Source: a virus
Virus record (IMG/VR): IMGVR_UViG_3300025141_017118
Coordinates: 1-64,000 of that record
DNA length: 64,000 nucleotides
Strand: one strand, 5' to 3'
The translations under genes were made by a program, and so were the position numbers. The notes below the pieces were generated by a model, which searched no databases, was not told the origin of the DNA, and saw nothing but the letters and a program-made list of their open reading frames with translations. Position 1 is the first letter of the stretch; each line of letters opens with the position of its first letter. Shown here piece after piece: positions 1 through 55,210 of the stretch.

Positions 1-114
1 CGGATTGGGCTTGGACATAGAATCATACTCAGCCATAAAACCATCGAAATCGGATGGGTTATTATCGTTTACTTCAGCCAACAACTCTCTCATGTATTCG
101 CGTAGTAGGTTCAT
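1..114 (-). CDS. Partial CDS running off the left edge; N-terminus MNLLREYMRELLAE (leader-motif protein)
   Basis: Manual translation from ATG at 114 gives MNLLREYMRELLAEVNDNNPSDFDGFMAEYDSMSKPNP with no stop. ATGA overlap with the stop of 111..608. Not in the ORF track. Confidence 0.8.
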   Translation of the reverse strand, partial: MNLLREYMRELLAEVNDNNPSDFDGFMAEYDSMSKPNP

Positions 115-608
115 TTCGGCCCCACGTAGACTACGTTACCGGATGATGGATAGTCCCTGGCCAATGATCTCCATACGCCTAAGGCACCTTTCGAGGTTGA
201 TCCGCCTGCACATACATCTGCGCCGATAAATGCGCCCCGGCGGCCTGCTTCTTGGCGGATGGTATCAATCAGGACTTTATACATCTTCTTTCCCCAGCCT
301 TGGCCCCGGAATGCTTGGTCAATTGCAGAATTACCTACCGCGAAAAGTTTAGGTCCTAATGATGGCCAGCGTGGGTCTTCGTAATCATACCCTTGTGCCC
401 TTAGCTTCTCTACGTCATCGGCACAGTATTTCCAGCGCGAAACTTCACGAGCTATGATGCTTCCCACCTTTTGCCCACTCATCATTAAGACAACAGATAT
501 ACCATTCCCATAATTCTGGACTTTCCATGTAACCCCGGGCCAATCGTCTTCTATTATTTCAGGGGCCTCGATCATGACTGACCTTATGTACTCGCGGAGT
601 AGATCCAT
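111..608 (-). CDS. GNAT-family acetyltransferase with leader MDLLREYIRSVMIE
   Basis: Acetyl-CoA binding motif A: AIDQAFRGQGWGKKMY; C-terminal S..ALGVWRSL helix typical of GNATs. Confidence 0.7.
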   Translation of the reverse strand: MDLLREYIRSVMIEAPEIIEDDWPGVTWKVQNYGNGISVVLMMSGQKVGSIIAREVSRWKYCADDVEKLRAQGYDYEDPRWPSLGPKLFAVGNSAIDQAFRGQGWGKKMYKVLIDTIRQEAGRRGAFIGADVCAGGSTSKGALGVWRSLARDYPSSGNVVYVGPK

Positions 609-910
609 TAGTCTTCCTCAAATACCTTGTCTAACCCTAGTAAAGACTTACACATGCTATACGAATAATGTAATTGTTCAAATGTTTTCCATACGTGCTC
701 TATGTTCACGGGACGAACCGACTTTGTTTTCCAATATTCTGGATCACTCTCTAAAGCAATATCTTCAGCCTCTGAGATAGACGTGGCGTTTATAAACTGA
801 ATGTGGCTCTTAAACTCAAAGTTTGATGTTCTCTCATATAGCTCAAATATATTTCCCTCTAACTCTTCGACAGTACCGAATAAATCCATTTGTATCACTA
901 ACCCTTTCAT
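608..910 (-). CDS. Hypothetical protein
   Basis: 100-aa ORF, stop overlaps the next start (TAATG), same strand as neighbours. Confidence 0.65.
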   Translation of the reverse strand: MKGLVIQMDLFGTVEELEGNIFELYERTSNFEFKSHIQFINATSISEAEDIALESDPEYWKTKSVRPVNIEHVWKTFEQLHYSYSMCKSLLGLDKVFEED

Positions 911-923
911 AATTTTAACCCGC

Positions 924-3011
924 CTATCTAACGTCCTCGGCTAGCAAACCTCTTATGTAAGTGCGTAGAACGCTTTCTTTCATAGAAGTCTTCTGCAGCC
1001 TGATCTCTACCGGTGATTGGCCGAATCCGTCAAAGGCACTTGTTATCTTGTACCCAAGAGCCTCAATACCCTCTACTTCTTTTGGGAATTGTGCCGTGAA
1101 CTTCTCAGGGTCCATAACACCCTTTTCAGATTTGAGCCCGGTATCAAATATTAGTTCTTCAACGCCCTCTTCTTTATAGCTTTCATCGAAGTACTTAAAT
1201 TCTCCGCCCATTGATTTGATGTGATCGATGAGTGGGCCGTGGTCCACCTGCATTTTTTCTTCGGCTTGTTTCCTTGCGCGGTCTACTTCACGGTTTTCGA
1301 CCTCGAAGATGTTGAACATTGCAACTTTTCCCTTGAGCGGGTCTAGTACTGTATCGAATAGGTCTTTGAATTTCTTTTCGTATTGTTGCGCTCGTTGATC
1401 GTGCTTAGAGCCGGGGTTCAATTCGATGATATCACCGTTCTTCATGCTAAGCTGTTCTGGAACACCGAGGACTAAGTCTCCATCGTTCTTCAGGTAGTCA
1501 GCAAAGATATCGCCGAATAGATCAAAATCACCGCTGGGTAGTTTAACGCCTGGAAACAAATCACTCAGTAAGATGTCAGGGTTTGATACACCAAGTCTGC
1601 GACCGGTATGTTTCATTGAATCTCGAACCTGTTCAGCTTCCATGGTTCCGCCGCCGTGAGACAGCCAAACTAGTTCCATCAGGTATTCTTTTATGAGAGA
1701 AGAGAATTTGTCTTTTTCTCTGCTTCCTCGGCGGGGGACTCCTTCAAGCATATGATGAAGATCGTGGGCCAGATAGTGAGGGTTAACGTCAGCAATAAAT
1801 GTGTCTGCGCCGGCAGGAACCTCAAAAGACTTGGGATAGACATAAAGAAGGTTGATTCCCTGTGGGTTCATCGCCCTCTGTATCTGGGGATATAACTTTC
1901 CGATGTTTGAAATGTCAGTAAGGGTGACTTGGCCTCGGCTTTTGAATCCGGATACTTTACCCTGTATTTCGTTTGGTAACCTGTATGCCCAACCTAGGTC
2001 ATCTGTATGGGCGACGTAGATGTTAACGCTCTGAGGAATTGCTTTAAAGTAGTTTGCGACCTCTTCTCGTACCATTACGTCATCATCGCTCTGTGTGAGA
2101 TACTCGAAATCGTCTAGCGGGACTTCCATAAGGAGCTGCCTTACATACGTACGCATTTCTTTAATATTGTTTTGCTTTGGCGACCATAGTTTGCTTCGCT
2201 CCGTATCGTAAATCGGAACGCCAAGATCTAGTGAGGTTAGCATAATCTCCTTCGTCACGCCTGCGGAAAAATGGTCAATGTCTTTAGCAGTATTGCCACT
2301 AGGGGCGCTGTGACCACCGGATATCAGCATCTCGGCCGTTTTGAGAATAGCATCTGCAATATCATCCTTTACGATGATAATCCCCCTAGGCCGCCAGTTA
2401 TCTATGAGCGCTTCATTGTTGGACTTAGTCTTGCTAGGATCCCATGTTGATTGATCTAAGATGTAAGGAATGCCGTCTCTTACCATCTTCTCCATATATT
2501 CATTTCCACGTTCAAGCTGTGCGTAGTTCTTGTAATTCTTAGACACAGTTGGGCGCTTGTTTCGGCCTGAAGATTTATCTCTGTGTGCAACTTCTTCTTC
2601 GGAACCCTCTGCACCCGGGCCGTAGTCTCCGTGGAACCCTGAGTACATATTGTCTTGCTCATTAGTCGCTAGGGTTATTCGTCCTTTGACCCATAGACCA
2701 TATGGGAGACCTGCTGCCGGATCAAAGACATCACCAGGAAGTGTCATTGTCACAGAGAGTTCATCTTTGCCACGCCCTTTCATAGCTTTAAGTCCATAGA
2801 AATCGCCGGTCCAGTGAACTGTGTCCAGAGTGCTAAGAAACTGATGGTCTGCGTTGGCGTTAAATGCACGCTTGATTTCTCGGCCGGCGTCTTTGCCTAT
2901 ATTGCCACCAAAGAACTGATCACCGAACTTATCAGATGCAGCAAGATCGTGAGCAAACCCCATCGGATCTTCTTTTAACAGCTCTTTCATATATTCCACT
3001 AATAACTTCAT
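924..3011 (-). CDS. Large hypothetical protein with three copies of the leader motif (possible polyprotein / internal head protein)
   Basis: Likely start ATG 3011 (ATGA overlap with the upstream stop). Motifs MKLLVEYMKELLKE, EMRTYVRQLLME and ESVLRTYIRGLLAE; degenerate metal motif AHDLHHMLE in the second half. Confidence 0.7.
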   Translation of the reverse strand: MKLLVEYMKELLKEDPMGFAHDLAASDKFGDQFFGGNIGKDAGREIKRAFNANADHQFLSTLDTVHWTGDFYGLKAMKGRGKDELSVTMTLPGDVFDPAAGLPYGLWVKGRITLATNEQDNMYSGFHGDYGPGAEGSEEEVAHRDKSSGRNKRPTVSKNYKNYAQLERGNEYMEKMVRDGIPYILDQSTWDPSKTKSNNEALIDNWRPRGIIIVKDDIADAILKTAEMLISGGHSAPSGNTAKDIDHFSAGVTKEIMLTSLDLGVPIYDTERSKLWSPKQNNIKEMRTYVRQLLMEVPLDDFEYLTQSDDDVMVREEVANYFKAIPQSVNIYVAHTDDLGWAYRLPNEIQGKVSGFKSRGQVTLTDISNIGKLYPQIQRAMNPQGINLLYVYPKSFEVPAGADTFIADVNPHYLAHDLHHMLEGVPRRGSREKDKFSSLIKEYLMELVWLSHGGGTMEAEQVRDSMKHTGRRLGVSNPDILLSDLFPGVKLPSGDFDLFGDIFADYLKNDGDLVLGVPEQLSMKNGDIIELNPGSKHDQRAQQYEKKFKDLFDTVLDPLKGKVAMFNIFEVENREVDRARKQAEEKMQVDHGPLIDHIKSMGGEFKYFDESYKEEGVEELIFDTGLKSEKGVMDPEKFTAQFPKEVEGIEALGYKITSAFDGFGQSPVEIRLQKTSMKESVLRTYIRGLLAEDVR

Positions 3012-3865
3012 CTGTAGCAAGACTCATTTTTTTGGTTATATTTTTTCATTTTCTCAACCTGTGCATATGTTTTTCCTAAAAACTTTCTGGTCGCCGGATC
3101 AGAGGGACCTAGGACTTCAAAATAATGCTGAATTGCATTCGGCATTTTAGAGTCTGACATGTCCCCCTTGCCTCTCAATATGTCACGAATTTGTGTGTCA
3201 TCAAATACGGCCAAAAGCTCTTCAGCAGCATCATGAGCATGGGCATCAATCTCGATGTGGGAGCTTAAATACTTCTTTTGCCACTCAGGATCTGATGAAT
3301 CACCCTGTGGAATCTGGCTCGGGTCATTCAACATTTCATCGAACGTGTCTAAATCACTTAACCCTTTATTTGCAGCCTGCTTTTTCATTTGTGTATAATG
3401 AACTAGTTCATGGCGCACCGTCTGTGCAATGTGTCTCATAAGGGCGTTGGGATTAATATCGGCAACATCGAAGCCGTTGTCTTCATCACTTAACATTAAC
3501 CATAGGTCAATCGTATTCCTACCAGGCCGATCTTTAGATACATACCAATTGGCGTCTATAAGCCACCGGTTTGGGTATGCGGGGTGCTGTGGGTGTAAAG
3601 TATAGTCAGGATCAGCGGTAAAATATGAACCCACCATCACATCAATATCTAAGCCAAGATCATCAAAAACTTTAGATAAAGCGCTTTCCAGCGCACTAGC
3701 TGCAGGTGTTTTTCCGGGACCATCGGCATCTGGATCATCCTCCTCATCATTAGGGTACGTCCAGAAGGTAGAACCAAGTATCGCAGAGTCTATAGACGAA
3801 AAATAGCTTGAAGGCAATTCACTGACCTCATTTAAAATTTCAGCTATGTATTCGTTTAATAACAC
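3008..3865 (-). CDS. HExxH (zincin-like) putative metallopeptidase with leader MLLNEYIAEILNE
   Basis: GGAG RBS before GTG at 3865; VRHELVHYTQ plus downstream HIEIDAHA supplying a candidate third ligand. Confidence 0.6.
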   Translation of the reverse strand: MLLNEYIAEILNEVSELPSSYFSSIDSAILGSTFWTYPNDEEDDPDADGPGKTPAASALESALSKVFDDLGLDIDVMVGSYFTADPDYTLHPQHPAYPNRWLIDANWYVSKDRPGRNTIDLWLMLSDEDNGFDVADINPNALMRHIAQTVRHELVHYTQMKKQAANKGLSDLDTFDEMLNDPSQIPQGDSSDPEWQKKYLSSHIEIDAHAHDAAEELLAVFDDTQIRDILRGKGDMSDSKMPNAIQHYFEVLGPSDPATRKFLGKTYAQVEKMKKYNQKNESCYR

Positions 3866-3890
3866 ATTTAGTCTCCAACCCAAATAAACA

Positions 3891-4163
3891 CTAAAACGTG
3901 GAACTAGTTAATTGATCCATCGTCTTTGTAAGAAGATCGCCCTTATCCCAACTTTTTCCATTATTAGTACATTTATAGGTTACCGTCTTACCCTTGTCAT
4001 CAGGCAAGCTACCTACCCTAACAACAACACCTTCACTCTCATAATGCTTGCAGCCGGGATTATTGTTGGTGACTGAATCACCCACGGTGGGCTCGTCATG
4101 ATGGCTTACGAAATTTTCACGAAGGATCTCATAAACATAAGATCGAATAATTTTTTTATGCAT
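3891..4163 (-). CDS. Small hypothetical protein (SH3/KOW-like pattern) with leader IIRSYVYEILRE
   Basis: VGDSVTN...EGVVVRV beta pattern after the leader. Confidence 0.55.
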   Translation of the reverse strand: MHKKIIRSYVYEILRENFVSHHDEPTVGDSVTNNNPGCKHYESEGVVVRVGSLPDDKGKTVTYKCTNNGKSWDKGDLLTKTMDQLTSSTF

Positions 4164-4566
4164 TCTTTCTTACCTTTGGTGTATAGTTGCGGATGTGATA
4201 TTTTCGCCAGGACCACAGTTCTCTTTTCTCTAAATACGTTCTCTTTTTTTCATTGGCATATGCCTCCTGTTCAAATGGATTTGCACGATAAGCATCTTTG
4301 GCATTTCGATGAATTACTAAACCGATGATCCAAAAAACTGCATATAGAATCCACTGAAATACTAATAAGAGCTCCAGCTGTTGCTGGAAATGTATCGTCT
4401 CATGGCGTCGTGTTGTCTTGTTAATGGTGCCTCTACAAAACACCCAAAAAGCAAAACTTATCGCACCGATCACAATAGGTGCAATTTTTGTTAAAATAAC
4501 GGGTACCCTGCTATTTTCTACAAAGACAGGCTCCCACATTCTTATCCTCTTTGGAAACTGTATCAT
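4156..4566 (-). CDS. HExxH putative metallopeptidase with hydrophobic segments
   Basis: GGAGG RBS before ATG 4566; RHETIHFQQ and NPFEQEAY motifs. Confidence 0.6.
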   Translation of the reverse strand: MIQFPKRIRMWEPVFVENSRVPVILTKIAPIVIGAISFAFWVFCRGTINKTTRRHETIHFQQQLELLLVFQWILYAVFWIIGLVIHRNAKDAYRANPFEQEAYANEKKRTYLEKRELWSWRKYHIRNYTPKVRKNA

Positions 4567-4597
4567 AAAACAAACCTCCAAGGATTAAATATCATCT

Positions 4598-19086: not shown

Positions 19087-19665
19087 TTATGATGACTTTT
19101 TCGCCGCGGGAGTTGCCTTTGGTTGTGGTTTTTGTGCCGGTTTCTTTCTAGGCTTTTTTTGCTTTAAGGGCATGTCCCACGTATATTTCGAACGGGAAGG
19201 ATAAACCAGTATCTTATTCCCAAACAATTCTACCTGAACTGGTTCAGGGGTTGTGAGAATACCAGCGCTCCTAGCACCTCGTACTGTATGTTTTATAAAG
19301 ATTGCAGCGTCTCTAACTGACATTTCTTTTGCGGCATCACCTGACATCCCTACCGATACGCCAGCGCGACCATATGAATCTTCTATGCCCTGTGGAGCTG
19401 AATATGCATCACCCATCTCGGGTGAATTATTGACTGCTTGTGCTATAAGATCAGCAACCTGGTCCCCCGGCTTTTCACCGGATACTCCCCCAACGCCTAG
19501 TCGGTTCATAAGCTCCGACGGATTTGAGTCCGCTAGCGCCTTAAGGCCTCGGAGTTCTTTCTTTAATCCACCACCAAGACCCCTTGTCTGAGGTGTAGGA
19601 GCCTCGTCCTGTTCTAAAATGATCCGACGTACGTGCCTGGCAATAAATTTCTCAATATCTTCCAT
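19087..19665 (-). CDS. Hypothetical protein with leader FIARHVRRIILE (probable virion protein)
   Basis: AGGAG RBS; ATAATTAT motif upstream; Lys/Pro-rich tail. Confidence 0.6.
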   Translation of the reverse strand: MEDIEKFIARHVRRIILEQDEAPTPQTRGLGGGLKKELRGLKALADSNPSELMNRLGVGGVSGEKPGDQVADLIAQAVNNSPEMGDAYSAPQGIEDSYGRAGVSVGMSGDAAKEMSVRDAAIFIKHTVRGARSAGILTTPEPVQVELFGNKILVYPSRSKYTWDMPLKQKKPRKKPAQKPQPKATPAAKKSS

Positions 19666-35577: not shown

Positions 35578-38500
35578 CTAAGCCCCCTGCCCGGGTCCTG
35601 TAACTACGAAGTCTAGCGCAATAAACTCAACCGACTTTGTAGGTTGAAGGAATATCTTTCCACGGATTGTGTTATTTTCCACGTCCGCTTGTGTTGTAGT
35701 TGACGAATCAATTACCACACGGTACCTATCAACCCCCTGGTGGGATTGTGCATATGAAAGAATCGGATCAACTGCCGATGAGAATTTCGCCAATGTAGTA
35801 GCGCGGTTGGGCTCAAACAGTATTGTGTTCGCGACATTTCGCACCTTACGGCGGATATCTATAAGCAGTCGACGAACATTAATACGATCCAGTGCTGATT
35901 GTGCTTTATAAAGCGTCTTATTCCCCATCACCGCCAATCCATAAGACGGCATCGCTGTAATTGGGTTAATGTCAGCGGCGTAAATCTTGTCCATATTTGC
36001 AGGGAAGAACTTAACCTTCGATTCTTTTGCATTCTGAATCTTTGCACGATTAACACCTGCAGGTGCGAACCATGGCTGTCCTATACTATCATTATATCCT
36101 ATTGCACCCAGCGCGCAAACCGTAGCAGGTGCTGTCATTGTCTCACCATCGCTATCCTGTATAATAACATCCGGATAGTATGCGGCAGCAAATGAACTAT
36201 CTAAATTACGATCATTGAAGCGCCGTACGGTGTTAGTTATACTCTGGTCATTCGCCATTTCGGACCCCGTCACAAACTGGTCACTTGCATCTTTTAATTC
36301 GATATCCATCAAATAAAGTGCGTCGAAACGATCTTCCATTGCGTCCATGGCATAATTTGTGATAGATGGATGTCGAATCCCTGGAATTGCAAGTAGCTGT
36401 ATGTCAACGTTTGCAGACTCTTCCAGAATATCAACAGCTTTTCGGTATGCTACCACCGTCGGGCCCTCTATACCCCCCTGGTTTGTATTATCAAATTCTC
36501 TACGAACGGCCGTGGTGGACATCTTATCTTTCTCTTTATCAAAGATATTGAGGCCATCAAAGCCTCCCTGAAGGAAGAAAGAGAAGTTCAAATATGAATT
36601 AATGTTTAAGGTTGTAAAGTCGTCTGGTGTTAAGAAACGACCTGCCTGTGTACGAGGTAGTTGGCCGGTTGCACCATCTTTATCTTTAGGATCTTTCGTA
36701 TTACTATATACCATTTCACGTAAACGACTATCTCTACGGTAGAGCCAAGCAACTGCCTGGTTTATATCAGGACCGGCATCGCGTGCAGGATCACCAACAC
36801 TAGCTGTAATTACCTGAATATTTTCCAGCGTAAAACTATTGTTGTTGAACTTATCACAGTCTAAAACCGTCCCTCCCCGTGAAGGTGTACCCGCGTTGTT
36901 CCCTACAGAAGCATTTTGAAAGGTTGTCTGGTAGTCAGGGTAATATTTAACCCAACTTTTAAAGCTTTTATTAAACTTGGCGGACTTGCTATCTGTTGGT
37001 TGCTTTACAGACGTCTTTTGCTCAAATTGTATGCCCCAGTATGGCCAGGATGTGGCCGTCGCAGCTGGAACTTTGGATGCCGCGCGGGCTGCAGGGGAGC
37101 TTCCGCGGATTGGGATCATTGACCCCAAACACTCACGCATAGGCATTGGAAGCTCTACTAGATCTCTAAATGCATCATCAACGCTTCCAGCTGATTGCCA
37201 AGCGGCAATTGTAGGTTGTCCGATGGTATCACTGGCTACCGTAAGTTTACTAGCGACAGCGGTGACGCTCTGAACAATATCAGACCCGGAAGTTACAAGG
37301 TGCGCATGGCCTCTAAAGCCGCATGGTACCGTCTTAACATCAACTGTGGGTGCACCTTCTTCCAACATGGGATTAAGCTCAAGTCGAATGTATTTTGACT
37401 TGTTAGGATATTTACCTTCGACCACTAAAACTTGATCGGTTGTCTCCTTGTCCCAGTCGTAAAAGCGGTTCATATCACCGACCATCCTACCAACAAAGTT
37501 GGCATCATCCGGATCAAGCGTACAAGCTTTGAATGTTTCGACCGCTGGGCCTGTAACTGCATTACTTCCATAATCTAGATCATCTATGTGTCTTACTTCT
37601 AGATCAAATGTTGAATACACGTTGGGATCTGTGTGTGCAGTAATATTGGAGACACTCATCTTGATACGATTAGGTAATAAGTCTGTCTGTGGATCCTCCC
37701 AAGTGCCAGCACCATCTGCTATCGCATGAACCCTAAAGAGGTTTAGTGGGTTAGCACCAAAGTTTTGTGAGATTACCCATGGGGATATTGCATGCTTATA
37801 ACGATCTTCGAATCCCTCAAAGTTTGGAATTCCCGCCGAACCCACAACCATACCATCACCCTCACCATTAGTTGGTGCCAGTATTGTCGCTGTGCTTAGC
37901 GCCGATCCGCTGTTGTATGATAGTGAGGAGGTCAGCAGGAACGCAATCTTGTCACCGAACCCAATATAATTTGTGGGCTCAGGATAGGTATACCCACCTG
38001 GGGATGCATTAACACAATCCACCCTAGAGAATGCACCTGATACTACGGCAAGTTGAGGGTGGACATCCCAGTGAGAATAAAGAACATATCCATGCTCCTC
38101 TAGAGCAGAAATATCCTGGTTCATCTTGGCTGCAAAGTAAGATTCACCCTGCATGTCAAAAGATGCTGTCACATAGCGTGTATTACCGGTGTGCCCATTA
38201 ATGAACATAACAAACCCGTCATCAGGTAAGTTAACATTCTTCGTGTCAGGTGCCGCCAGGGCGTTGGTGTTGCCCGCTTTCCTAACAAGACCAACAGGAC
38301 CACCAACATTATTGTTGCTAGCAACTGTAGGTGTGGAAATAATATTTACCTGGCCCGGGCCCTTTGCACCTGATAGTGTAAGAGTAACACCACTCGCTGC
38401 CATAAGAATACCACGCAAGATCGGCTTACTTCCGGTCACATGAGCGGCGCCTGTGCCCCAGCCGGTGTTGCCGATGCTGGGTATAATTCCGGAGTCCGAA

Positions 38501-39021
38501 AATATGGATGATTCTCTCATCTCGGCCCCGGTGAGGCCATTGGAGCCTGAGCTCATAAAACAACCAAAGAGGTATGTTCTACCGGTAGAAGCATCCGCTA
38601 CGCCTGTAGCAGAAGCCAGAGCATGAGGGTTGTTCCCTAACTGGCCGTCGGCCTGGACCAATTGTCCTCCGACAACAAAACCGGCATTGTTAACCCTTCC
38701 TGTATTATTACCTGTTGTCACACGGCGTTTGCCATCACCGGCGCCAAGAACACGTAGATATGTACCGGCAGAGCGATTTGCTAGCCATTGTCTCATGGCC
38801 ATGGGGCCAAATGTTCGATCTGACTTCCCTGTTGCAATATCTCCAAACCGTTCTACGAACTGTGTAAAATTAGCTACCGTGACAGGCACGAATGCAGGCC
38901 CGGTTCGGGAGGGACCGACAACGGCTGCAGGAACTCCTGTGGGCGACTCTACGGGAGAGCCACCTGTGAGGTCAATTTCGGAGGCTTTTACACCCGGTGA
39001 TCCAAACGTTACGTTAGACAT
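35578..39021 (-). CDS. Tail sheath protein (copy 2)
   Basis: SPGV..SEID, GPAFVP, PWFAPAG.NR, INPI, SALDRINVRRLL, FEPN, PTKSVEFI. Confidence 0.92.
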   Translation of the reverse strand: MSNVTFGSPGVKASEIDLTGGSPVESPTGVPAAVVGPSRTGPAFVPVTVANFTQFVERFGDIATGKSDRTFGPMAMRQWLANRSAGTYLRVLGAGDGKRRVTTGNNTGRVNNAGFVVGGQLVQADGQLGNNPHALASATGVADASTGRTYLFGCFMSSGSNGLTGAEMRESSIFSDSGIIPSIGNTGWGTGAAHVTGSKPILRGILMAASGVTLTLSGAKGPGQVNIISTPTVASNNNVGGPVGLVRKAGNTNALAAPDTKNVNLPDDGFVMFINGHTGNTRYVTASFDMQGESYFAAKMNQDISALEEHGYVLYSHWDVHPQLAVVSGAFSRVDCVNASPGGYTYPEPTNYIGFGDKIAFLLTSSLSYNSGSALSTATILAPTNGEGDGMVVGSAGIPNFEGFEDRYKHAISPWVISQNFGANPLNLFRVHAIADGAGTWEDPQTDLLPNRIKMSVSNITAHTDPNVYSTFDLEVRHIDDLDYGSNAVTGPAVETFKACTLDPDDANFVGRMVGDMNRFYDWDKETTDQVLVVEGKYPNKSKYIRLELNPMLEEGAPTVDVKTVPCGFRGHAHLVTSGSDIVQSVTAVASKLTVASDTIGQPTIAAWQSAGSVDDAFRDLVELPMPMRECLGSMIPIRGSSPAARAASKVPAATATSWPYWGIQFEQKTSVKQPTDSKSAKFNKSFKSWVKYYPDYQTTFQNASVGNNAGTPSRGGTVLDCDKFNNNSFTLENIQVITASVGDPARDAGPDINQAVAWLYRRDSRLREMVYSNTKDPKDKDGATGQLPRTQAGRFLTPDDFTTLNINSYLNFSFFLQGGFDGLNIFDKEKDKMSTTAVRREFDNTNQGGIEGPTVVAYRKAVDILEESANVDIQLLAIPGIRHPSITNYAMDAMEDRFDALYLMDIELKDASDQFVTGSEMANDQSITNTVRRFNDRNLDSSFAAAYYPDVIIQDSDGETMTAPATVCALGAIGYNDSIGQPWFAPAGVNRAKIQNAKESKVKFFPANMDKIYAADINPITAMPSYGLAVMGNKTLYKAQSALDRINVRRLLIDIRRKVRNVANTILFEPNRATTLAKFSSAVDPILSYAQSHQGVDRYRVVIDSSTTTQADVENNTIRGKIFLQPTKSVEFIALDFVVTGPGQGA

Positions 39022-39060: not shown

Positions 39061-42000
39061 TTACTGGAAGGTAACCCCTGCTTGATCAATAATGAAGTCC
39101 ATGGCAATAAACTCTACGCTTCGCGTCGGTACCACAATAATTCTACCATTGAGGCGGTGATTTAAACGATCCGACTCTGTGTTGTTAGTGTCATCCATTA
39201 CCACGCGGAACCTCTCAATGCCTTGTGCGGCCTGAATGGATGCAAGTATTGGTGTGACATTTGATACAAATCTTGAACGTACAGCAGGCGTATTTTGTTC
39301 AAATAACAACCTTCTGGCCACATTAATTATCTGTCTCTTAAGCTCAAGTAACATTCTACGAACGTTAACCCTGTCTAGGGCCGACGGCGTGGCTTGTAGG
39401 TTTTTCTGTCCGAAGATAACAAACCCTGGATTATTATTTGATCCCGCCGTTGGTAAGGTTGCAATGGGGTTGATACGACCTTCGTAAAGTGTATCGCGAT
39501 CCGATGCAGCCAATCTTAGCGTGGTGTTAGATACACTTGCTAGTGACCCTCTAGAAAAGCCTGCAGGAGCAAACCATGGGCTTTGCATTCTGTCATTTAA
39601 TCCTAACGCGCCCAATACAGCAGTTGATGCCGGCTGGCGAACTATCCTTCCGGTCTGGGGGTCAGCTGCAAAGACATCCGGGAAATATGTAGCAACATAA
39701 TTGTTGTCTATATTTTTCATTTCCAGCTCTAGGGTAGTTTGTTTTACCTGAGGTCTTTCGACTGAGTCTGCATATAGCCTACGACCATTTTCATCATACC
39801 CGGGAATATCCATTATATAGATGGCTAGCCCATACTCTCTGACCAGGTCACTTACAGTATCAGTAACAAGATCACTTCGTATACCCGGTACCGCCAGGAT
39901 ATTAATCATCGACTGGTACTTATTTGTCATTATACGAGATGCAAAGTTATATGCCGTTATATTCTGGTTTTTATTTCCGGTACCCGCAGGATTTGTTGTT
40001 CCATTTGTCTGCGTTCCCAGTCCAGTATCGCTATAGTCAGTAGCAGCTTTACCTCCGGAAAGGTCCGCGGAGGAAGCACGATCATTCATGAAAAATTGAT
40101 CTTTATCCAGAATATTCAGGCCGTCGAAACCACCATAGAAAATATTCGTGAACTTTGCATATGAACTAAATCTATTCCACACCGCAGAAGATGTTGCAAA
40201 CAGCGTAGCGAACGTTATTCTACTAAGGCCGGTTGCATTAGGATCAAGGATAGTCCCGTCCGTTGTACTTACCACCCCATTTCGAATGTACGCGGCTTCT
40301 TTCATCTCAGTTTTGAGTGCGCCTGTTAAGAATGATATATGCCCAGCAGTATCCAGTTGGGTCCTTAGAGCGACGCGTGACAATGAAAACTTGTTATTAT
40401 TGAAGACGTCTGCGCCCGTACCCGTAACCAAGGTATCCATTTTTTTGATACCCACAAACTTCGTATAGGCATCCACAATTCGATTAAGCGTTGCCCCCGC
40501 GTTGGGTTGTAAGACTGTATTATTCAGCCCGGTTTCAACCTGCGAAGAAGATGCAACTAGTAAAGTATTTTGAACCCCCCAATAAAGGTTTTTATTGGCA
40601 CGCTCATCAGCACCAGCCTGGCCAACCCATGTAGGATTGTCTTGAAGCGCGCCCTTTGTGCACTTAAACCTAAATGGTAGTGGAGGTACAATTCCAAATC
40701 GTAACCTGCGTGCGATTGACCTAGTTGTTGAAGCCCCATCATCTGGATCGGCGCTAGCGCCCATGGCGCCACTAGACCAGAGTCGTGGTAGTTTGTTCGC
40801 GGTCTCGGCTCCGTCTAGATTTGTTTGGCCAAGGGCAACACCATTATAACTCAACACAGAACCTGAAAGGTCTGTCAACGAGTTTGTGGTTTTTAAAGTT
40901 GGTACTCCCCGGAAACCAAATACACCAGCAGACTCTGGAACGTCACCATTCTTAAGTTGCTTACTTAACTGAACCCTTACATACGCGGACTTGACTGGCC
41001 ACTGTCCTGTGACAATAATGTTTTTCTCATCCTCATACTCGGAGTCAAAATTAACCTTGTACTTGATGTCACCTATTCTTTTTCCGACATAATTTGAACT
41101 TCGCGGGTCTAAATTACACTCCGTAAAGGATTCTAAGATCACTCTTTTCTTATCCGTATCCGTAAATTTACGAATCTCCACATCAAATGAAGGATAAGGA
41201 TATGAAGGATCAGCAGATTTCCTTAGATTACTAATTGATGCCTTAAACTTATCATTTGCATGAGCTCCGTCATCTAAAGCCTCGAGGTAAAATAGGTCCC
41301 ACTCTGTTCCAGCGTAAGGTTGCGAAATAAACATTGTTGTGCGTGGTGACGTATACCTAGCATCAAACCTTCCATATGCCTGCAGAAACTCTGAAGGAGA
41401 TATTTCACCACTAGTATTACTATGGGCCTTACTCCCCGAACAAAGTGCAACCGAACCGGTAATAGGGCTTAGCCTACAAATATTATGATCTACTGGCCAG
41501 TGTGCATAAAGAAGGTGAGATTCCTCCTGAAACTTGAGAGGATCAGTATTAAGAACATTTGAAAGGTAGTTGATGTTTGAAGGATCAAGGGACGCAGTTA
41601 GAACTCTTAAGCCGGTAAGGCCTGAAGGCGCTGTTCCAAAATTCTGTGTAGAACTAGAAATAACTAGTTTGAAACCCTTTCTTGTCCCTTCTCTATTGAT
41701 AAAGCTTGAACCGGCCGTGGTGAAATCACCAAAGGGTGTTGCCTGATCGCCATAGGCCGCGTCGGTCCAGTTTCTTCCGCTGGTGGGGCCACCAACATTT
41801 GGCTGGGGATATCTAGACGTTCCGGCAAAGGCGCCGTTATCACCATCTAGAAGCTGTAGCCTGGTTCCCGTAGCTACCAAAATCATAGCTCTCGTTAGAA
41901 CCAGACCGCTAGCGGATTTTTGAGAGTGAGCAGCTTCCTGCAAGTTTGCTAAAACGCTAACTGGAAAACTATCATTCTGAGTAAACATTGGAAACCCAAT

Positions 42001-42474
42001 GCCCTCTTGTGAACCTGATATCTCATGAAGCGCGTTGATAAATGTAACGGCACCTACTGCGCCTCCTGGGACGGAGGAGTTAAATGCCGGAGCACCTGGA
42101 ACGGAGCTGGCCTTGCCAGAAATCTCAGAACCGGATAACCTGAACCCAGCGTTCCTAACGGTTCCCTGTCGAGCTGTAGTAAGAAAATCTGCAGCCGAAT
42201 TATTGGAACCAGCGCCTAAAACTCTCATGTAGGTGCACGCTTGTTGCGTCTTCAAGTACTCTGCCAGGGCATAAGGCCCCGCCATGTGTTGGTTTAAATC
42301 ACCGAAAGTCTTAATAAAATCATCAAGACTGGCCACGGTGACTGGAATAAATGCGGGGCCCCGCTGGGCAACACCAATCACACCTGCGGGTGTGCCTTGC
42401 GGTGATGTTGTCGGAAGCCCTATATCAACTTCGCGGGGATAAAAACCCGGGGATTTAAATGTTTGCTCAGCCAT
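39061..42474 (-). CDS. Tail sheath protein (copy 1)
   Basis: SPGFYPREVD, GPAFIP, PWFAPAGFSRG, INPI, SALDRVNVRRML, FEQN, PTRSVEFI. Confidence 0.92.
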   Translation of the reverse strand: MAEQTFKSPGFYPREVDIGLPTTSPQGTPAGVIGVAQRGPAFIPVTVASLDDFIKTFGDLNQHMAGPYALAEYLKTQQACTYMRVLGAGSNNSAADFLTTARQGTVRNAGFRLSGSEISGKASSVPGAPAFNSSVPGGAVGAVTFINALHEISGSQEGIGFPMFTQNDSFPVSVLANLQEAAHSQKSASGLVLTRAMILVATGTRLQLLDGDNGAFAGTSRYPQPNVGGPTSGRNWTDAAYGDQATPFGDFTTAGSSFINREGTRKGFKLVISSSTQNFGTAPSGLTGLRVLTASLDPSNINYLSNVLNTDPLKFQEESHLLYAHWPVDHNICRLSPITGSVALCSGSKAHSNTSGEISPSEFLQAYGRFDARYTSPRTTMFISQPYAGTEWDLFYLEALDDGAHANDKFKASISNLRKSADPSYPYPSFDVEIRKFTDTDKKRVILESFTECNLDPRSSNYVGKRIGDIKYKVNFDSEYEDEKNIIVTGQWPVKSAYVRVQLSKQLKNGDVPESAGVFGFRGVPTLKTTNSLTDLSGSVLSYNGVALGQTNLDGAETANKLPRLWSSGAMGASADPDDGASTTRSIARRLRFGIVPPLPFRFKCTKGALQDNPTWVGQAGADERANKNLYWGVQNTLLVASSSQVETGLNNTVLQPNAGATLNRIVDAYTKFVGIKKMDTLVTGTGADVFNNNKFSLSRVALRTQLDTAGHISFLTGALKTEMKEAAYIRNGVVSTTDGTILDPNATGLSRITFATLFATSSAVWNRFSSYAKFTNIFYGGFDGLNILDKDQFFMNDRASSADLSGGKAATDYSDTGLGTQTNGTTNPAGTGNKNQNITAYNFASRIMTNKYQSMINILAVPGIRSDLVTDTVSDLVREYGLAIYIMDIPGYDENGRRLYADSVERPQVKQTTLELEMKNIDNNYVATYFPDVFAADPQTGRIVRQPASTAVLGALGLNDRMQSPWFAPAGFSRGSLASVSNTTLRLAASDRDTLYEGRINPIATLPTAGSNNNPGFVIFGQKNLQATPSALDRVNVRRMLLELKRQIINVARRLLFEQNTPAVRSRFVSNVTPILASIQAAQGIERFRVVMDDTNNTESDRLNHRLNGRIIVVPTRSVEFIAMDFIIDQAGVTFQ

Positions 42475-47743: not shown

Positions 47744-49702
47744 TTAGATAATGTTCAAGTCGAGCACTGTAACAGTACCGTAGAAGTCGGAACGAACCAT
47801 CTTCTTACCGTAGCGAGTCATGACACCCTTACGCGGGGTGAAGTCATCTGGCTGGAAGATAGTCGGCGTTACGATGAGAGGCACATACGGAGCGTAGACA
47901 TAGCCTGTCTCCAGATAGCTACCACCCTTGTATCCAACAAGAACCTTATTCCGTGGGAAGTAAGGATCCTTGTAGACCGTAAAGCGATTGCTAAGTGTAC
48001 CAATCTTCTCAGCGCCGAGTGACATCGGAGCACTTACCTGGCCTTCACCATCAAGGGTGTAGGACGGACGGTAAAGAACCGAAGCCTCAAGAATCGTTGC
48101 AATATCGGGTGAAACCACGACAAAGTTTGCCGAGCCACGCAATGTTAAGCGGTGAATCTCATTAGCGACATCAATGATTGTCTCAGTAAGGGTCTCATAC
48201 CACTCGCGGACTGTACCGGTGAAGGCCGGTCCAGGAGCCAATGTATCAGACTTGCTGACCTCAGTACCTGTCTCACGATTGACAAACTTACCAGGGGCAC
48301 GTGACCAGTAGCGACGTGTCTTAGCTTGTACCAGAAGATCATTAAGAACCTCACGGTCAATCTCTAGAGCAATCTGCTCTGAAAGGATTTGAGTAAGCTC
48401 AACCTCAGCATCTAAACTATGGTATGCATTCAAGTCCTGAGCAAGTTCTGGTGACCATCGTGCACGCAACTTACGTGTAACGGCGGTAACAGCAACAGAC
48501 TCAATCTTGATATCAATCTCAGGAATAACCGGAGAAGGAGTAGCACCAAAATTAGACTCAAACGAAGGAATCGTAAGAGTTGAACCATCAGCATCCACAT
48601 CGAGTGTAGAAGCAATTGGAGCACTTATGTTGAGCTGCTGAAGGCTGGTTACGAACGAGCTATCCTGTACAGTACCAGTAACAACTGCCATGAAACAAGC
48701 ATTTGCAGTGGCCTTTGTAACCATAGGATCAGCAGTAAAGACGCCGGCCGTGAATGTACCAAGCTGGTTCAAACGACGGATATTGACGATATTCTGACCA
48801 CCCTGCATTGTCTGTGGTACCACACCAACACCTGCAGAACTTGGTGAGTTCTGTGATGTTACACCTGGAACGACTGGGCCTGTATTAAGAGCCCACTCCT
48901 GAACCTGTGTAAGATCGTATTGAGCGAATGCCGAACTACCCAACGCAAAGAATACAGCCTGGAATCGACCATCGTTAGATTGATTTGGGTCACCTTCAAT
49001 AAGTGTTGTAACCTGCGGGTCAAACTGAATAAGCTTGCCATCAGTACCGGTAGCAACAAGAAGGCCACCATCCTGAATTGTGGTACCGCCAACATTACCA
49101 ACGGAACCAGAAGCAAGGATCTTCACCGGTGCAGTCTCAGCACCGACCACACCATTTAGTGCGGAGCCACTGTGTACCTTTGTGAAGCCCTGACCTACAA
49201 GATCATAAAGACCACCGGCACCCAATGAACCAGAACGAATTCCCTTACCTGCGGGGTTATTATAAATGGAAGAACCGGATGCATATACCTCAACCTTATC
49301 ACTAATGGTTGTATCAGAAGTATATGACTCACGGGAACCATATGTGTAATCCAAGTAGAAAAGCAGGCCAGAAGGCAAGCTCATCGGCTGGATGGAAACG
49401 AGCTCGTTAGCAACGAGACCGCCAAAGACCCGACGAACGATCGGGAAAGCAATATTTGTGAAGCCCTGCAAGTCACCGGAGCGAGCACCTAAGCCCCCAC
49501 CAGTACCTACTGAATTTGCTTCACGAAGAAGTTGTCCTGCTTGGTTCTCCAATAGACGTGACATGTTCTCACGATGAGTGCCGTCCATGCCTCTCAGGAG
49601 TCCCGTACGAGACCACTTCTCCACAAGCCGACGGTTTTGCGTACCCAAGTGACGGGAACGAATACCTTCAGTCAGCGATTCAAGTGAAAAAGATTTTGAC
49701 AT
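47744..49702 (-). CDS. Major capsid protein (T4 gp23-like)
   Basis: LLENQ, FPIVRRVF, VSIQPMSLPSGL.FYLD, TRKLRARW.PELAQDL.AYH.LDAE.EL, YAPYVPL, FTPRKGVMTRY. Confidence 0.96.
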   Translation of the reverse strand: MSKSFSLESLTEGIRSRHLGTQNRRLVEKWSRTGLLRGMDGTHRENMSRLLENQAGQLLREANSVGTGGGLGARSGDLQGFTNIAFPIVRRVFGGLVANELVSIQPMSLPSGLLFYLDYTYGSRESYTSDTTISDKVEVYASGSSIYNNPAGKGIRSGSLGAGGLYDLVGQGFTKVHSGSALNGVVGAETAPVKILASGSVGNVGGTTIQDGGLLVATGTDGKLIQFDPQVTTLIEGDPNQSNDGRFQAVFFALGSSAFAQYDLTQVQEWALNTGPVVPGVTSQNSPSSAGVGVVPQTMQGGQNIVNIRRLNQLGTFTAGVFTADPMVTKATANACFMAVVTGTVQDSSFVTSLQQLNISAPIASTLDVDADGSTLTIPSFESNFGATPSPVIPEIDIKIESVAVTAVTRKLRARWSPELAQDLNAYHSLDAEVELTQILSEQIALEIDREVLNDLLVQAKTRRYWSRAPGKFVNRETGTEVSKSDTLAPGPAFTGTVREWYETLTETIIDVANEIHRLTLRGSANFVVVSPDIATILEASVLYRPSYTLDGEGQVSAPMSLGAEKIGTLSNRFTVYKDPYFPRNKVLVGYKGGSYLETGYVYAPYVPLIVTPTIFQPDDFTPRKGVMTRYGKKMVRSDFYGTVTVLDLNII

Positions 49703-49726: not shown

Positions 49727-51478
49727 TTACTTTTTGTTGTCAATTCCTGCAAGGACTGCCCAGCGATCTGTCTCACCCGATTTCTTTGCCGAAGCGGCGG
49801 AGCGGGTTGATCTGGAAGATGAACCGAGTAGCTTGCGTCCCTCACGAAGAGTACCTCTCTTCTTTAGGGATGTTGTTAAGCTCTTATAGAGCAGTTTTGC
49901 CTCGCGGAGCGTCTTGGCATTATCTAAAGCCTCGACAATAGCTCTTTGCTGCTTGGATGATAAATTTCTATTTTGCATAAGCTTATTGACATAAAGAAGC
50001 TTAGCATTAAAGAGATTCATTTCAGTTAACTGATTTTTGAGTGCAACGACTGCTCTCTTATATTCCTTTAACTGGTTTCCTGTTTTACGTACGGCCTTTC
50101 GACCACGTCCTTTTCTTGTTCTTGCACGAGATTCAGCAATTCGCTGTGCACGTCGACGGCGGAGGTTGCGGCGACGGCGTGATTCGACTGTTACCTCGGT
50201 TTCCGATACGGGACCGAGCTCATCAGCCAAAGCGTTTAAAAGATCTTCTTCGCTGACATCAACAAGGACATCACCTAAATCTTCTCCACCGTGATCCAGG
50301 CTTGGATCAGCATCCTTTGCCTCTTCTTGCTCACGAAGGCGTCTCATATGACGAAGAGCACGACGTAAAGAAGCTTCATCTAACTCATAAACCTCTTCCT
50401 CAGTCTCCTCTTCAACATCTACAACCTCTTCATCTTCATCAGCAGCTAGCTCAATAGACACATCAAGGTCATCAACGTTAACCTCATCAGTATCTTCGAC
50501 GCCTAAGACATCAAGATCATCGTCAGTAAGCATAAGATCAAGTTCACCCAGATCCATCTGCTCATCTTCAACGTCAATCTCTTCCTCTTCAACGTCCTCT
50601 GCACCAGCCATGCTGACAACAACATCAAGGTCGTCAACGCTAACCTCCTCAGTATCTTCGACACCGAGTGTTTCTAAATCCTCATCAGAAAGTACAACAT
50701 CTAACTCATCAAGAGTTTCCTCTTGATCAGCTTGATCGGCTGCATCTAACTGCTCGAACAATCTATCAAATAGTGATTCTGCATGTCGCCTTGACATTTT
50801 TTTCATCTCCTTTATTACCTCATTAAATCTCGAGCGAACATTATTTTTATTTTGCGCTCTTTTTGTAAATATTACGTGATCTCGTAAACTGATTGCTTCT
50901 TTTAACAATTGTGTGTAATGTTTACGGGCAGACTCTCGTAGGGTCACATCATTTTTATTAATATTTGCCCACTCAAGAAGCCTATTAAACCTTTTAACTC
51001 TTATAGCCAAATCGTTTACACGATTATCAATTGCCCTCTCACCCAACAACGCTGGATTTTTTATAAACATTGCAAGAGCCCGGGCAGACTCCGTATTGAG
51101 ACTCATCAAGTCATCTTCCTGATCCGTTGAATACATTAGATCATCATCTTCTGTACCAATATAAGAAGACTCATCATCAGTCTCATATTCATCCTCAGCC
51201 TGGGTTATATCACCGGACGAAAGAGCGATGGTTGCGTCACCTTGTACGTCAATATCAATAGTAGGACTATCAATATCTGAATCTTCAAGTGAATCCATTA
51301 CGGAATCCATCCCTATGTCGTCATTCTCAGTATCTTCAATATCGTCTATAAGCTCTTGTTCAATCAACATTCGAATTCGAGGTGTTATAGATTCCAAAAT
51401 TTTATTTTTCGCATTTTGCTCAGCAACTTTTCTTAATTGCCTTGCGTCTGCGATGGCTTCATCAAATAATGTTGTCAT
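49727..51478 (-). CDS. Prohead core / scaffold protein (gp22-like)
   Basis: LFDEAIADA..LR..A..NAK, very acidic middle, EMNLFNAKLLYVNKL, RWAVLAGI; directly upstream of MCP. Confidence 0.8.
   Translation of the reverse strand: MTTLFDEAIADARQLRKVAEQNAKNKILESITPRIRMLIEQELIDDIEDTENDDIGMDSVMDSLEDSDIDSPTIDIDVQGDATIALSSGDITQAEDEYETDDESSYIGTEDDDLMYSTDQEDDLMSLNTESARALAMFIKNPALLGERAIDNRVNDLAIRVKRFNRLLEWANINKNDVTLRESARKHYTQLLKEAISLRDHVIFTKRAQNKNNVRSRFNEVIKEMKKMSRRHAESLFDRLFEQLDAADQADQEETLDELDVVLSDEDLETLGVEDTEEVSVDDLDVVVSMAGAEDVEEEEIDVEDEQMDLGELDLMLTDDDLDVLGVEDTDEVNVDDLDVSIELAADEDEEVVDVEEETEEEVYELDEASLRRALRHMRRLREQEEAKDADPSLDHGGEDLGDVLVDVSEEDLLNALADELGPVSETEVTVESRRRRNLRRRRAQRIAESRARTRKGRGRKAVRKTGNQLKEYKRAVVALKNQLTEMNLFNAKLLYVNKLMQNRNLSSKQQRAIVEALDNAKTLREAKLLYKSLTTSLKKRGTLREGRKLLGSSSRSTRSAASAKKSGETDRWAVLAGIDNKK
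50440..50710 (-). repeat. Intragenic two-copy tandem repeat, period 162 bp (54 aa), in the scaffold gene
   Basis: acatcaaggtc.tcaacg.taacctc.tcagtatcttcgac at 50460 and 50622; LGVEDT.EV.VDDLDV twice. Confidence 0.8.
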
Positions 51479-51520: not shown

Positions 51521-51745
51521 TCATTTCTTTCCCTTAATTTTGTGCGCCACATTGGTCTTATGTCTCATTTTGGCAGCATGCTTTTTTCTTCTTCGCTTTG
51601 TACCCTTTGATTCATGAAATGATCTGTCTTTAACTTCTTTGACAATACCTTCCTCTTTGCACTTACGAGTAAATTTTCGTAACAATTGTTCAAAGGTACG
51701 TATTTTTCCCCCCATGTGTACACTAACGTTGGTCGGCTTAGACAA
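51521..51745 (-). CDS. rpsU: Phage-encoded ribosomal protein bS21
   Basis: FEQLLRKFTRKCKEEGIVKEVKDRSFHESKGTKRRRKK matches the bS21 pattern; TTG start with GAGG RBS. Confidence 0.85.
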   Translation of the reverse strand: MSKPTNVSVHMGGKIRTFEQLLRKFTRKCKEEGIVKEVKDRSFHESKGTKRRRKKHAAKMRHKTNVAHKIKGKK

Positions 51746-53799: not shown

Positions 53800-54081
53800 T
53801 TACTTAAGTCTCTTAATTACTCTAGCACGTAACTTTCTTTTAACTTCATTAACTCGCTTAAGGCTCTTGCGCAGGCGTGATTCCTTTATCTTAAGTGCCT
53901 TCATCCAATCCACATCTTGTTCAATGGTGCCTGCCATTTCATCAGCATCGACCTCATCAGTCTTTGCAGCAGCTTTTTCTACGCTCTCTTCACCAAGCTC
54001 TAATGATTCTAACATTTTTCTACGTTCTCTAAGAACCAGCTTCTTTAATAAAGCTGGAGTTAATTTTTTTACCTTCGCCAT
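53800..54081 (-). CDS. Small helical head-region protein with leader-like N-terminus
   Basis: LTPALLKKLVLRERRKMLE; AGGAG RBS. Confidence 0.65.
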   Translation of the reverse strand: MAKVKKLTPALLKKLVLRERRKMLESLELGEESVEKAAAKTDEVDADEMAGTIEQDVDWMKALKIKESRLRKSLKRVNEVKRKLRARVIKRLK

Positions 54082-54149: not shown

Positions 54150-54596
54150 TCATCTAATTTTTTTTTCTGCAAATGCTAGGTCTGCCCAATTAGTGGCCGA
54201 CTCACCAAAAAGATCCATGGGATCAGCAGAAGCAGCTGCGCGGGTGGCAGAATCTGCCATGCCCAATTGGGACCCTCCCCTCTCAGCGTCAATCTGTTCT
54301 TGCAACGTACCCATTGCCGTATCTGCAAAAATAGAAGCCATGACAGGATCTGCTGTTAATGTATTAACTGTCTGGTGCACACGCTCTTCATGCTTTTCCT
54401 GCTTGCTTCCAAATGTTATATGGTCCAGTGCAGGTCTCGAATTAATTATTGATTTTTTTTGTGTTTTCTTGCGAGGCTTTCCTCTTTTATTCGACTCATT
54501 CACTAAGTCAGAGCCGCCAGCTAATCCCTCCGCTAGAATCTCAACCAAACACTCTTTAACTATTCCCTTAAGTTTTTCTCTAGATAACCTTGCCAT
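54150..54596 (-). CDS. Head-region protein with leader-like N-terminus
   Basis: LSREKLKGIVKECLVEILAE; follows the prohead protease. Confidence 0.65.
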   Translation of the reverse strand: MARLSREKLKGIVKECLVEILAEGLAGGSDLVNESNKRGKPRKKTQKKSIINSRPALDHITFGSKQEKHEERVHQTVNTLTADPVMASIFADTAMGTLQEQIDAERGGSQLGMADSATRAAASADPMDLFGESATNWADLAFAEKKIR

Positions 54597-54601
54597 TATT
54601 T

Positions 54602-55210
54602 TTACTCGTCCCAATCCAGTATATCATTAAAAACCCTATCAACCCTATCGCTTTTGTTAAAGTATGTCTTTAACTGTTTGCTGGATAATTCTTTTCCTTC
54701 TGACATCATAAAAGCACCGGGGGTGGAGGGTTCGGAGACAAAGTCCCAGCATATTAACTGAAAATCATCTTGTACCACATCATAATCGCCATCCCTGCGT
54801 GTGCTTCCTACCCCCCTAGACGAGATACCCAGGGTTACCCCGGACTCTACTAAGCTTTGAAGAATTTTCCCACAAGGTGTATCAAGCAGCTCTACATTTC
54901 CATAACATACATCACCGTCCATCCATGCTTCTCTCACAATATGAGAAACATTTTTTAATTCAACAACTGAGGAGTCTGGGTGATCACATTCACCTAGTGC
55001 ACGGTTCTCTCGAATAAACTTTTGATAATTTCTTACTTCTCTCTCTAAAATAGGCAGAGGATAAATACGTCCGTTTTGATTTAAGGTATCAGCTTTTTGT
55101 AACACCCCCTTAAGGATAACTTTTCCATTATTTGTATCTCGTGACTCTTTTATCATATCCTCGGAATATTCAAAGGGTCTCCAGTCTGAAAGTACTTTTA
55201 GTTTACTCAT
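54602..55210 (-). CDS. Prohead protease (T4 gp21-like)
   Basis: NQNGRIYP, ALGECDHP, VSH, LGISSRGVGS, DFVSEPSTPGAF. Confidence 0.95.
   Translation of the reverse strand: MSKLKVLSDWRPFEYSEDMIKESRDTNNGKVILKGVLQKADTLNQNGRIYPLPILEREVRNYQKFIRENRALGECDHPDSSVVELKNVSHIVREAWMDGDVCYGNVELLDTPCGKILQSLVESGVTLGISSRGVGSTRRDGDYDVVQDDFQLICWDFVSEPSTPGAFMMSEGKELSSKQLKTYFNKSDRVDRVFNDILDWDE

Follow-up and report, generated by a model that had tools for sequence, protein, structure and literature searches.

In phage T4, IPI, IPII and IPIII, which are internal proteins, and the Alt protein carry a capsid targeting sequence (CTS) that is processed by the gp21 protease (Mullaney and Black 1996; reviews PMC9026906, PMC3012670). 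The T4 CTS reads MKTYQEFIAE (PMC8442874), in which positions 4 and 7 play a part in targeting and 8 and 10 in processing (PMC9026906, section 2.6), and gp21 cuts after L/I-x-E (PMC9026906, section 2.5). At the polymorphic ip loci of T-even phages, variable bodies stand behind a conserved CTS (PMC9026906, section 3.1; PMC3012670). Processed inner-body and ejection proteins are found in phages phiKZ, 201phi2-1 and SPN3US (PMC5694885, PMC7411985), and the polyvalent proteins of phages and conjugative elements contain domains believed to reach the host together with the DNA (Iyer et al. 2017, PMC5512222). Here, we analyse the first 64 kb (64,000 nt, referred to as the window) of the 102,120-bp viral contig IMGVR_UViG_3300025141_017118 (G000), in which unrelated proteins share a short N-terminal peptide that we call the leader. 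Judging from its sequence, we think it likely, with some reserve, that the leader is a clade-specific extended version of the T4 CTS, that is, a capsid address tag clipped by a protease.

The contig is 32% complete according to CheckV and thus a fragment, and every one of the approximately 80 genes in the window is on the minus strand. Its nearest long relative, genome G001, is 281 kb long and 92% complete, which makes the phage a jumbo of about 300 kb; it is an uncultured marine jumbo T4-like phage. Leaders were located at the left end of the window, in an array of adjacent genes, and at two more distant sites, as follows (cargo denotes the putative passenger behind a leader):

1-114, minus strand: leader-bearing cargo gene truncated at the contig end, with its 5' part present; leader MNLLREYMRELLAE at 73-114 (31 bits).
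111-608, minus strand: 165-aa cargo with a predicted GNAT fold; leader MDLLREYIRSVMIE at 567-608.
608-910, minus strand: 100-aa orphan gene within the array, without a leader.
924-3011, minus strand: 695-aa fusion of two cargo modules; leaders MKLLVEYMKELLKE at 2970-3011 (N-terminal), MRTYVRQLLME at 2124-2156 (internal) and VLRTYIRGLLAE at 936-971 (orphan, C-terminal).
3008-3865, minus strand: 285-aa cargo with an invariant HExxH and a His/Asp/Glu cluster; leader LLNEYIAEILNE at 3827-3865, GTG start.
3891-4163, minus strand: 90-aa cargo; leader variant IIRSYVYEILRE at 4116-4151 (17.2 bits).
17685-17972, minus strand: 95-aa acidic protein outside the array; leader MNILRKLIRQILYE at 17931-17972 (18.6 bits).
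19087-19665, minus strand: protein of 192 aa; weak leader-like segment FIARHVRRIILE, extended on its N-terminal side, at 19612-19647 (below 10 bits).

The five leftmost leaders, all on the minus strand, lie where the initial annotation had described them, and the distant copy that it reported at 17972 is solid. The second distant copy, at 19665, is locally similar to the leader region of a gene in a relative (L002:10873), but at its low score it stands only as a weak candidate. A regular expression for the motif, run on the six-frame translation of the whole 102-kb contig, gave seven matches, all in the true coding frame; six of them were at ORF residues 3-8 and the seventh at a C-terminus. 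We also scanned the contig with a position-specific scoring matrix (PSSM) built solely from the leaders of relatives, using a threshold of 15 bits and 200 shuffles. Eight matches reached the threshold, against 0.05 in the shuffles. Six were N-terminal (0.005 expected), an enrichment that the initial annotation had proposed to look for, and the other two belonged to the 924-3011 ORF, within it or at its end. In an all-against-all short BLAST of the 80 predicted proteins, the leaders were the top similarity after one true paralogue pair, and the bodies behind them were mutually unrelated, as had also been claimed. The shared leader is real and far beyond chance.

The leader is widespread among relatives, which here are IMG/VR contigs of 20–293 kb, to which homologues of the 285-aa cargo (50–58% identity) pointed. 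In G001, ten or more adjacent genes each begin with M-x-LLREYIRELLxE, and a hidden Markov model (HMM) of the leader had 12 strong matches in this genome, all within one 6-kb array. The exact canonical leader was found in 29 stretches on about 22 IMG/VR contigs. Across about 30 relative loci there were 183 matches of 16 bits or more, 137 of which start exactly two codons after the ATG. These leaders sit on 125 distinct bodies that form 39 unrelated clusters. A logo of 89 distinct leaders reads M-[N/K]-L-L-R-E-Y-I-R-E-L-L-x-E, with E10 in 62% and E14 in 83%; L12-x-E14 is likewise present in 83% and I8-R9-E10 in 62%, and conservation ends abruptly after E14. The 285-aa cargo has homologues in 107 clusters, most of which carry the leader at residue 3; a second, longer form such as MKITKRNLRHLIREVLVTE is seen in some of its orthologues. 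Orthologues of the 90-aa cargo (3891-4163) bear other leader variants (L002:1197, P0034/P0036). Megablast and tblastn searches with the region and with the 285-aa cargo found no match in 50,697 phage records. The leader HMM had no match in Flavobacterium phage immuto, Microcystis phage Mel-JY01, P-SSM2 or Pelagibacter phage Mosig, and in T4 its one match was weak and not to an internal protein; the LLREYIR type of leader is, among the sequences searched, clade-specific. A literature search for LLREYI, and for a CTS outside T-even and phiKZ-like phages, retrieved no prior description.

Comparisons of bodies with and without the peptide, together with structure predictions, indicate that the leader is separable from the proteins that carry it. 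HAD-like paralogues in G001 exist both with and without a leader, and their alignment begins directly after it. The body of 111-608 recurs in a relative (L050, 93.5% identity) as the C-terminal half of a fusion, where it lacks its own leader. In tagged proteins, Pfam domains lie past the leader, RNase_T from residue 38 and AAA_33/Zeta_toxin from residue 21. In AlphaFold (AF2) models, the leader of the 285-aa cargo is a helix with a predicted confidence score (pLDDT) of 56–72, compared with a body above 93; for the 165-aa cargo, the values are 43–46 and 73–90, so that overall leaders range from 43 to 72 and bodies from 73 to 97. The initial annotation had raised the option that the helix is an integral part of each cargo fold; the low leader pLDDT, the leaderless paralogues and fusions, and the domains that start past the leader all point the other way.

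A predicted helix with hydrophobic residues at positions 3, 4, 7, 8, 11 and 12 and charged flanks, an amphipathic heptad-like pattern, would also suit a short oligomerisation coiled coil that builds a cytoplasmic hetero-complex and takes part in neither packaging nor cleavage. Twelve residues, however, are short for a stable coiled coil, and a kinase, an exonuclease, a phosphatase and a GNAT protein have no obvious reason to co-assemble. The fusion in L050 lost its internal leader while the body remained unchanged, and the terminal Glu, followed by an abrupt loss of conservation, fits a cleavage boundary better. We therefore consider a coiled coil of this kind quite unlikely.

The 924-3011 ORF and its counterparts illustrate how leaders relate to module boundaries. 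Four relative loci (L029, L030, L033 and L055) encode module 1 (residues 1 to about 280) as a gene by itself, and module 2 is a stand-alone leader gene in another (L044, 85% identity), where it begins with MLLHEYIRDLLME directly after a stop codon. The C-terminal leader reads on, in L054, into a third module of about 270 aa; in the window, the ORF ends three codons past the leader Glu, and the leader is left as an orphan. The 285-aa family, in its fused forms, likewise retains a leader at the junction, so leaders double as module joints. The orphan leader at 936-971 is followed by the unrelated, leaderless 100-aa gene at 608-910, an arrangement that resembles a scar left where a cassette directly downstream of a leader was replaced.

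That module boundaries and swaps fall at leaders (the orphan copy, and modules that are fused or separate in relatives), and that array genes overlap as if translationally coupled, could also be read to mean that the shared 5' segment is conserved mainly as nucleic acid, because it serves translation initiation or regulation or provides a joint at which cassettes are exchanged by recombination, and that the peptide has no function. We find this highly improbable. Identical leader residues are encoded by different codons in 56–65% of cases, which argues for selection on the peptide and not for recent DNA copying, and internal, non-initiating copies keep the peptide. DNA identity is also too low for efficient homologous exchange, and leader recombination may arise as a side effect, which has been proposed for the ip loci of T-even phages.

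The similarity to T4 lies in the register and in the cleavage motif. The leader M-x-L-L-R-E-Y-I-R-E aligns from the Met, in register, with the T4 CTS, the sequence of which we confirmed on T4 ipII and ipIII; M1, a hydrophobic residue at 4, E6, an aromatic residue at 7, I8 and E10 are common to both. The leader tail, I-R-E-L-L-x-E, resembles the I-N-E-L-L-R-E of the T4 gp24 propeptide, and the leader offers L-x-E at its end and usually also I-R-E four residues earlier. A PSSM of the clade leaders (positions 2-10, fixed register) was used to rank 409 T4 ORF N-termini, and it placed IPII third, IPIII fourth, gp24 sixth and gp67 ninth. These four are known as prohead or gp21-processed proteins. 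As a separate observation, the first rank was held by the uncharacterised gp61.1. Gene 61.1 of T4 (NC_000866, 18966-19130; locus L017) encodes a 54-aa hypothetical protein whose start, MKTFKEFIKE, is closely like those of IPI (MKTFKEF...) and the IPII/IPIII CTS; going by this likeness, gp61.1 may be an unrecognised CTS-bearing small protein.

The window also has a T4-type head module, in which the portal (gp20), the protease (gp21/S77) and the major capsid protein (MCP, gp23) are encoded together:

47744-49702, minus strand: gp23-type MCP (Pfam Gp23, 264.2 bits) with a predicted maturation site.
49727-51478, minus strand: acidic coiled-coil scaffold candidate with 18 L/I-x-E sites (11.5 expected); ATATTTAA upstream.
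53800-54081, minus strand: head-module protein of 93 aa, leader-like at its N-terminus and densely set with L/I-x-E sites.
54150-54596, minus strand: small core-type protein adjoining the protease; conserved leader-like N-terminus ending in LKGIVKECLVEILAE, followed by G.
54602-55210, minus strand: gp21-type prohead protease (Peptidase_S77; Pfam S77, 90.6 bits), the presumed processing enzyme.
55215-56075, minus strand: candidate degradable core protein, its gene flanked by those of portal and protease; 12 L/I-x-E sites against 4.0 expected.
56068-58059, minus strand: gp20-type portal (Pfam Portal_T4, 256.8 bits).

In addition to its Pfam match, the protease aligns to the T4 gp21 structure 5JBL (E 1.9e-15) and keeps the catalytic His (GECDHP) and Ser (GISSRG), the wild-type T4 segments being GELNHP and GVSSRG, which bears out the earlier statement that a gp21 homologue is encoded here. 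Its identity is 78–80% in relatives and only about 48% in the closest cultured phages. The QLLRE-A segment noted earlier in the MCP is present at residues 57-62. Among relatives, the MCP has a conserved [L/V]-L-[R/K]-E followed by [A/S]; in this phage, the site is LLRE/A (residues 58-62, 49517-49531) and is flanked by the ENQ box and the conserved core, as is the E65/A66 site of T4 gp23. The highest L/I-x-E densities in the genome belong to the head-module proteins 55215-56075 and 53800-54081 and to the scaffold candidate. The leader-like N-termini that had been reported more loosely for the genes starting at 54596 and 54081 are conserved in relatives. The head module also contains, between the scaffold candidate and the upstream core genes, a bS21 ribosomal protein gene (51521-51745, minus strand; Pfam Ribosomal_S21, 44.2 bits), and Microcystis phage Mel-JY01 has a similarly placed RpsU gene that adjoins its protease.

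A motif found ahead of structural genes is also present ahead of the leader array:

4585-4592, minus strand: ATATTTAA, a late-promoter-like motif just upstream of the array block and just after thyX.

ATATTTA[A/T] occurs 20–50 nt upstream of scaffold, tail and baseplate genes, and in G001 the same motif precedes both the first gene of the leader block (L002:1174) and the scaffold gene. At the consensus level only, this supports expression of the leader array late, alongside the head genes. The T4 consensus late promoter, TATAAATA, was considered and set aside, as it is not used in this phage and ATATTTA[A/T] fits the structural genes instead.

One neighbour of the array bears on the question of what the leader binds:

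4156-4581, minus strand: small membrane protein with HExxH, without a leader, conserved as an array neighbour (phrog_15610 'protease', E 8e-24).

Its homologues lie near or beside leader arrays in many relatives (L002, L031, L035, L037, L040, L051 and L053). Such company, and a strict R-E-Y-I-R conservation that implies a specific partner without naming it, would be in line with a leader that is a recognition helix for some other common partner, such as a modifying enzyme, a chaperone, a membrane or this HExxH membrane protein. The position of the gene relative to the array varies between genomes, so that its co-location may be plain synteny, and a partner of this sort would leave unexplained the register match to the T4 CTS, the L-x-E end, the MCP site and the leader-like N-terminus of the head-core protein. 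We regard it as unlikely, if somewhat less so than the coiled coil. A radical-SAM maturase as the partner was rejected: PF04055 had no match in the contig, in G001 (92% complete) or in G002, and it matched all control genomes.

Pfam and PHROGs yielded essentially nothing for the leader proteins of the window. In the clade, the cargo includes, above Pfam thresholds, an RNase_T exonuclease, a Zeta-toxin/AAA_33 kinase and a PAP2 phosphatase, and, below threshold, ART-PolyVal, NT5C/HAD, GNAT, 2H phosphoesterase and SprT-like proteins. The GNAT and HExxH assignments of the initial annotation both held. All top fold matches of the 111-608 body were GNAT enzymes, led by AtaT and TacT (Foldseek probability about 1.0, TM 0.45–0.5), and the HExxH of 3008-3865 is invariant. 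For the fold of this 285-aa cargo, Foldseek returned nothing below E 0.6, and the best VIA-wide match (Z 5.9 over 64 residues) was helical noise. AtaT and TacT are tRNA-acetylating toxins, and the likeness of the modelled 111-608 fold to them hints at an injected effector directed at translation.

Elsewhere in the window, the adjacent genes 35578-39021 and 39061-42474 (minus strand, ~1140 aa each) are paralogues, with 32–41% identity over several segments (E 5e-38); they are the only true paralogue pair in the all-against-all comparison. IMG/VR flags the record as a provirus. Its right end falls exactly at the ATG of the gene at 102120 and its left end cuts the 114 ORF; rather than marking a genuine prophage boundary, these ends probably arose when a fragment of a lytic jumbo phage was trimmed. 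A circular join, which would place the 114 ORF in frame with the ATG at 102120, was dropped, as the two ends of the contig do not overlap and the contig, 32% complete, is a fragment.

Compared with the T4 internal proteins, the leader system shares a short N-terminal propeptide on unrelated proteins, the same register, an L/I-x-E end and an S77 head module, and in both the cargo includes enzymes, T4 Alt being an ADP-ribosyltransferase and the clade having a weak ART-PolyVal match. The leader is longer than the T4 CTS (14 residues against 10), has a second L-x-E a helical turn further on and is not detectably homologous to it by HMM. Unlike T4, the clade, which is known from sequence alone, has at least 39 cargo families, arrays of ten or more genes and leaders kept between fused modules. 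Polymorphic ip loci of T-even phages were reportedly described by Repoila et al. in 1994. Like these, the array is hypervariable, with the leader as its one conserved element and a gene content that changes from one close relative to another; here, however, the cluster belongs to an uncultured marine jumbo clade, the leader sequence is another one and the cargo consists mostly of recognisable enzymes instead of small basic proteins. The phiKZ group also has a gp21-related protease that cuts after the Glu of a three-residue motif, with multi-site substrates packaged with the DNA, but its propeptides are about 80–270 residues long, do not form one shared tag and use S/A-x-E. The leaders do not fit that pattern: they have 12–14 residues, are common to many proteins and end in L-x-E. 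With polyvalent proteins, the cargo has in common ART-PolyVal, a Zeta-toxin-like kinase, nucleases and peptidases, and some ORFs are multi-module; most modules here are nevertheless separate genes with their own putative address tag, and the fusions have a protease-type joint between modules. Encapsulin cargo-loading peptides are short and transferable and address diverse enzymes to the inside of an HK97-fold shell. The leader, in its proposed capsid role, would likewise be a short transferable address for diverse enzymes, although encapsulin peptides are usually C-terminal, remain uncleaved, bind the shell protein directly and involve neither DNA nor injection.

The proposal that the leader is a capsid address clipped by the head protease, as first put forward in the initial annotation, draws support from its register likeness to the T4 CTS and to the gp24 propeptide, its L-x-E terminus, the intact S77 protease and the matching MCP site, as well as from its detachability, its clade-wide conservation on at least 39 families and the motif ahead of the array. 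Several observations weigh against it. A leader HMM used in a six-frame search of T4 retrieved no internal protein and gave one weak match to another protein, so the link to T4 rests on the fixed-register PSSM ranking and on motif logic, not on a significant alignment, and the leader may be either homologous to the T4 CTS or convergent with it. The strict conservation of R5, E6, Y7, I8 and R9 fits any specific partner, not only a scaffold. When a PSSM of the long-type leader was run on the proteome of this phage, the N-terminus of the head-core protein ranked fifth, below the best score of a shuffled proteome, and its similarity to the leader is not significant on its own; the head-module copies, like that at 19665, are statistically weak. 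The identity of ATATTTA[A/T] as a promoter is inferred at the consensus level, and the motif is absent upstream of the dispersed genes 17972 and 19665, where the initial annotation had placed it. Finally, no cultured relative in the search of 50,697 phage records bears the tag.

If the leader is indeed such an address, the leader-bearing proteins would be made late, and during prohead assembly the leader would attach the cargo to scaffold and core. Next, the gp21-type protease would make its cut behind the Glu of L-x-E and perhaps another behind I-R-E, a turn before. Once released, the bodies would remain in the head and enter the host with the DNA, and internal leaders in fused ORFs would be cut points that separate the modules. 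From what the sequences suggest, the tagged proteins are probably injected along with the DNA. More tentatively, and with slightly more doubt than belief, we propose that the leader is the hub of a plug-and-play system of effector delivery in an abundant phage clade, in which one helix is at once capsid address, protease cut site and cassette joint, and dozens of enzyme families are loaded, swapped, duplicated and fused, either as separate proteins or as polyproteins cut inside the capsid. Among these families would be a GNAT protein resembling toxins that acetylate tRNA, a kinase of the Zeta type, an exonuclease (RNase T), a phosphatase (PAP2) and a protein like ADP-ribosyltransferases, and the tag would be a sequence key with which hundreds of injected host-takeover or anti-defence proteins could be mined from metagenomes.

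The CTS concept is already established for T4, and the gain here would be in breadth and in the cargo catalogue, not in the principle. If true, the CTS principle would reach well beyond T-even phages, with a larger and more enzymatic cargo than that of T4, natural multi-cargo fusions jointed by the tag would be documented, and a second, longer targeting peptide would be available for capsid-loading applications. Should the tag work as in T4, it would mark, in a widespread uncultured marine clade, the proteins that the virion carries and injects before genes are expressed, a class enriched in anti-defence and host-takeover effectors that are otherwise hard to recognise.

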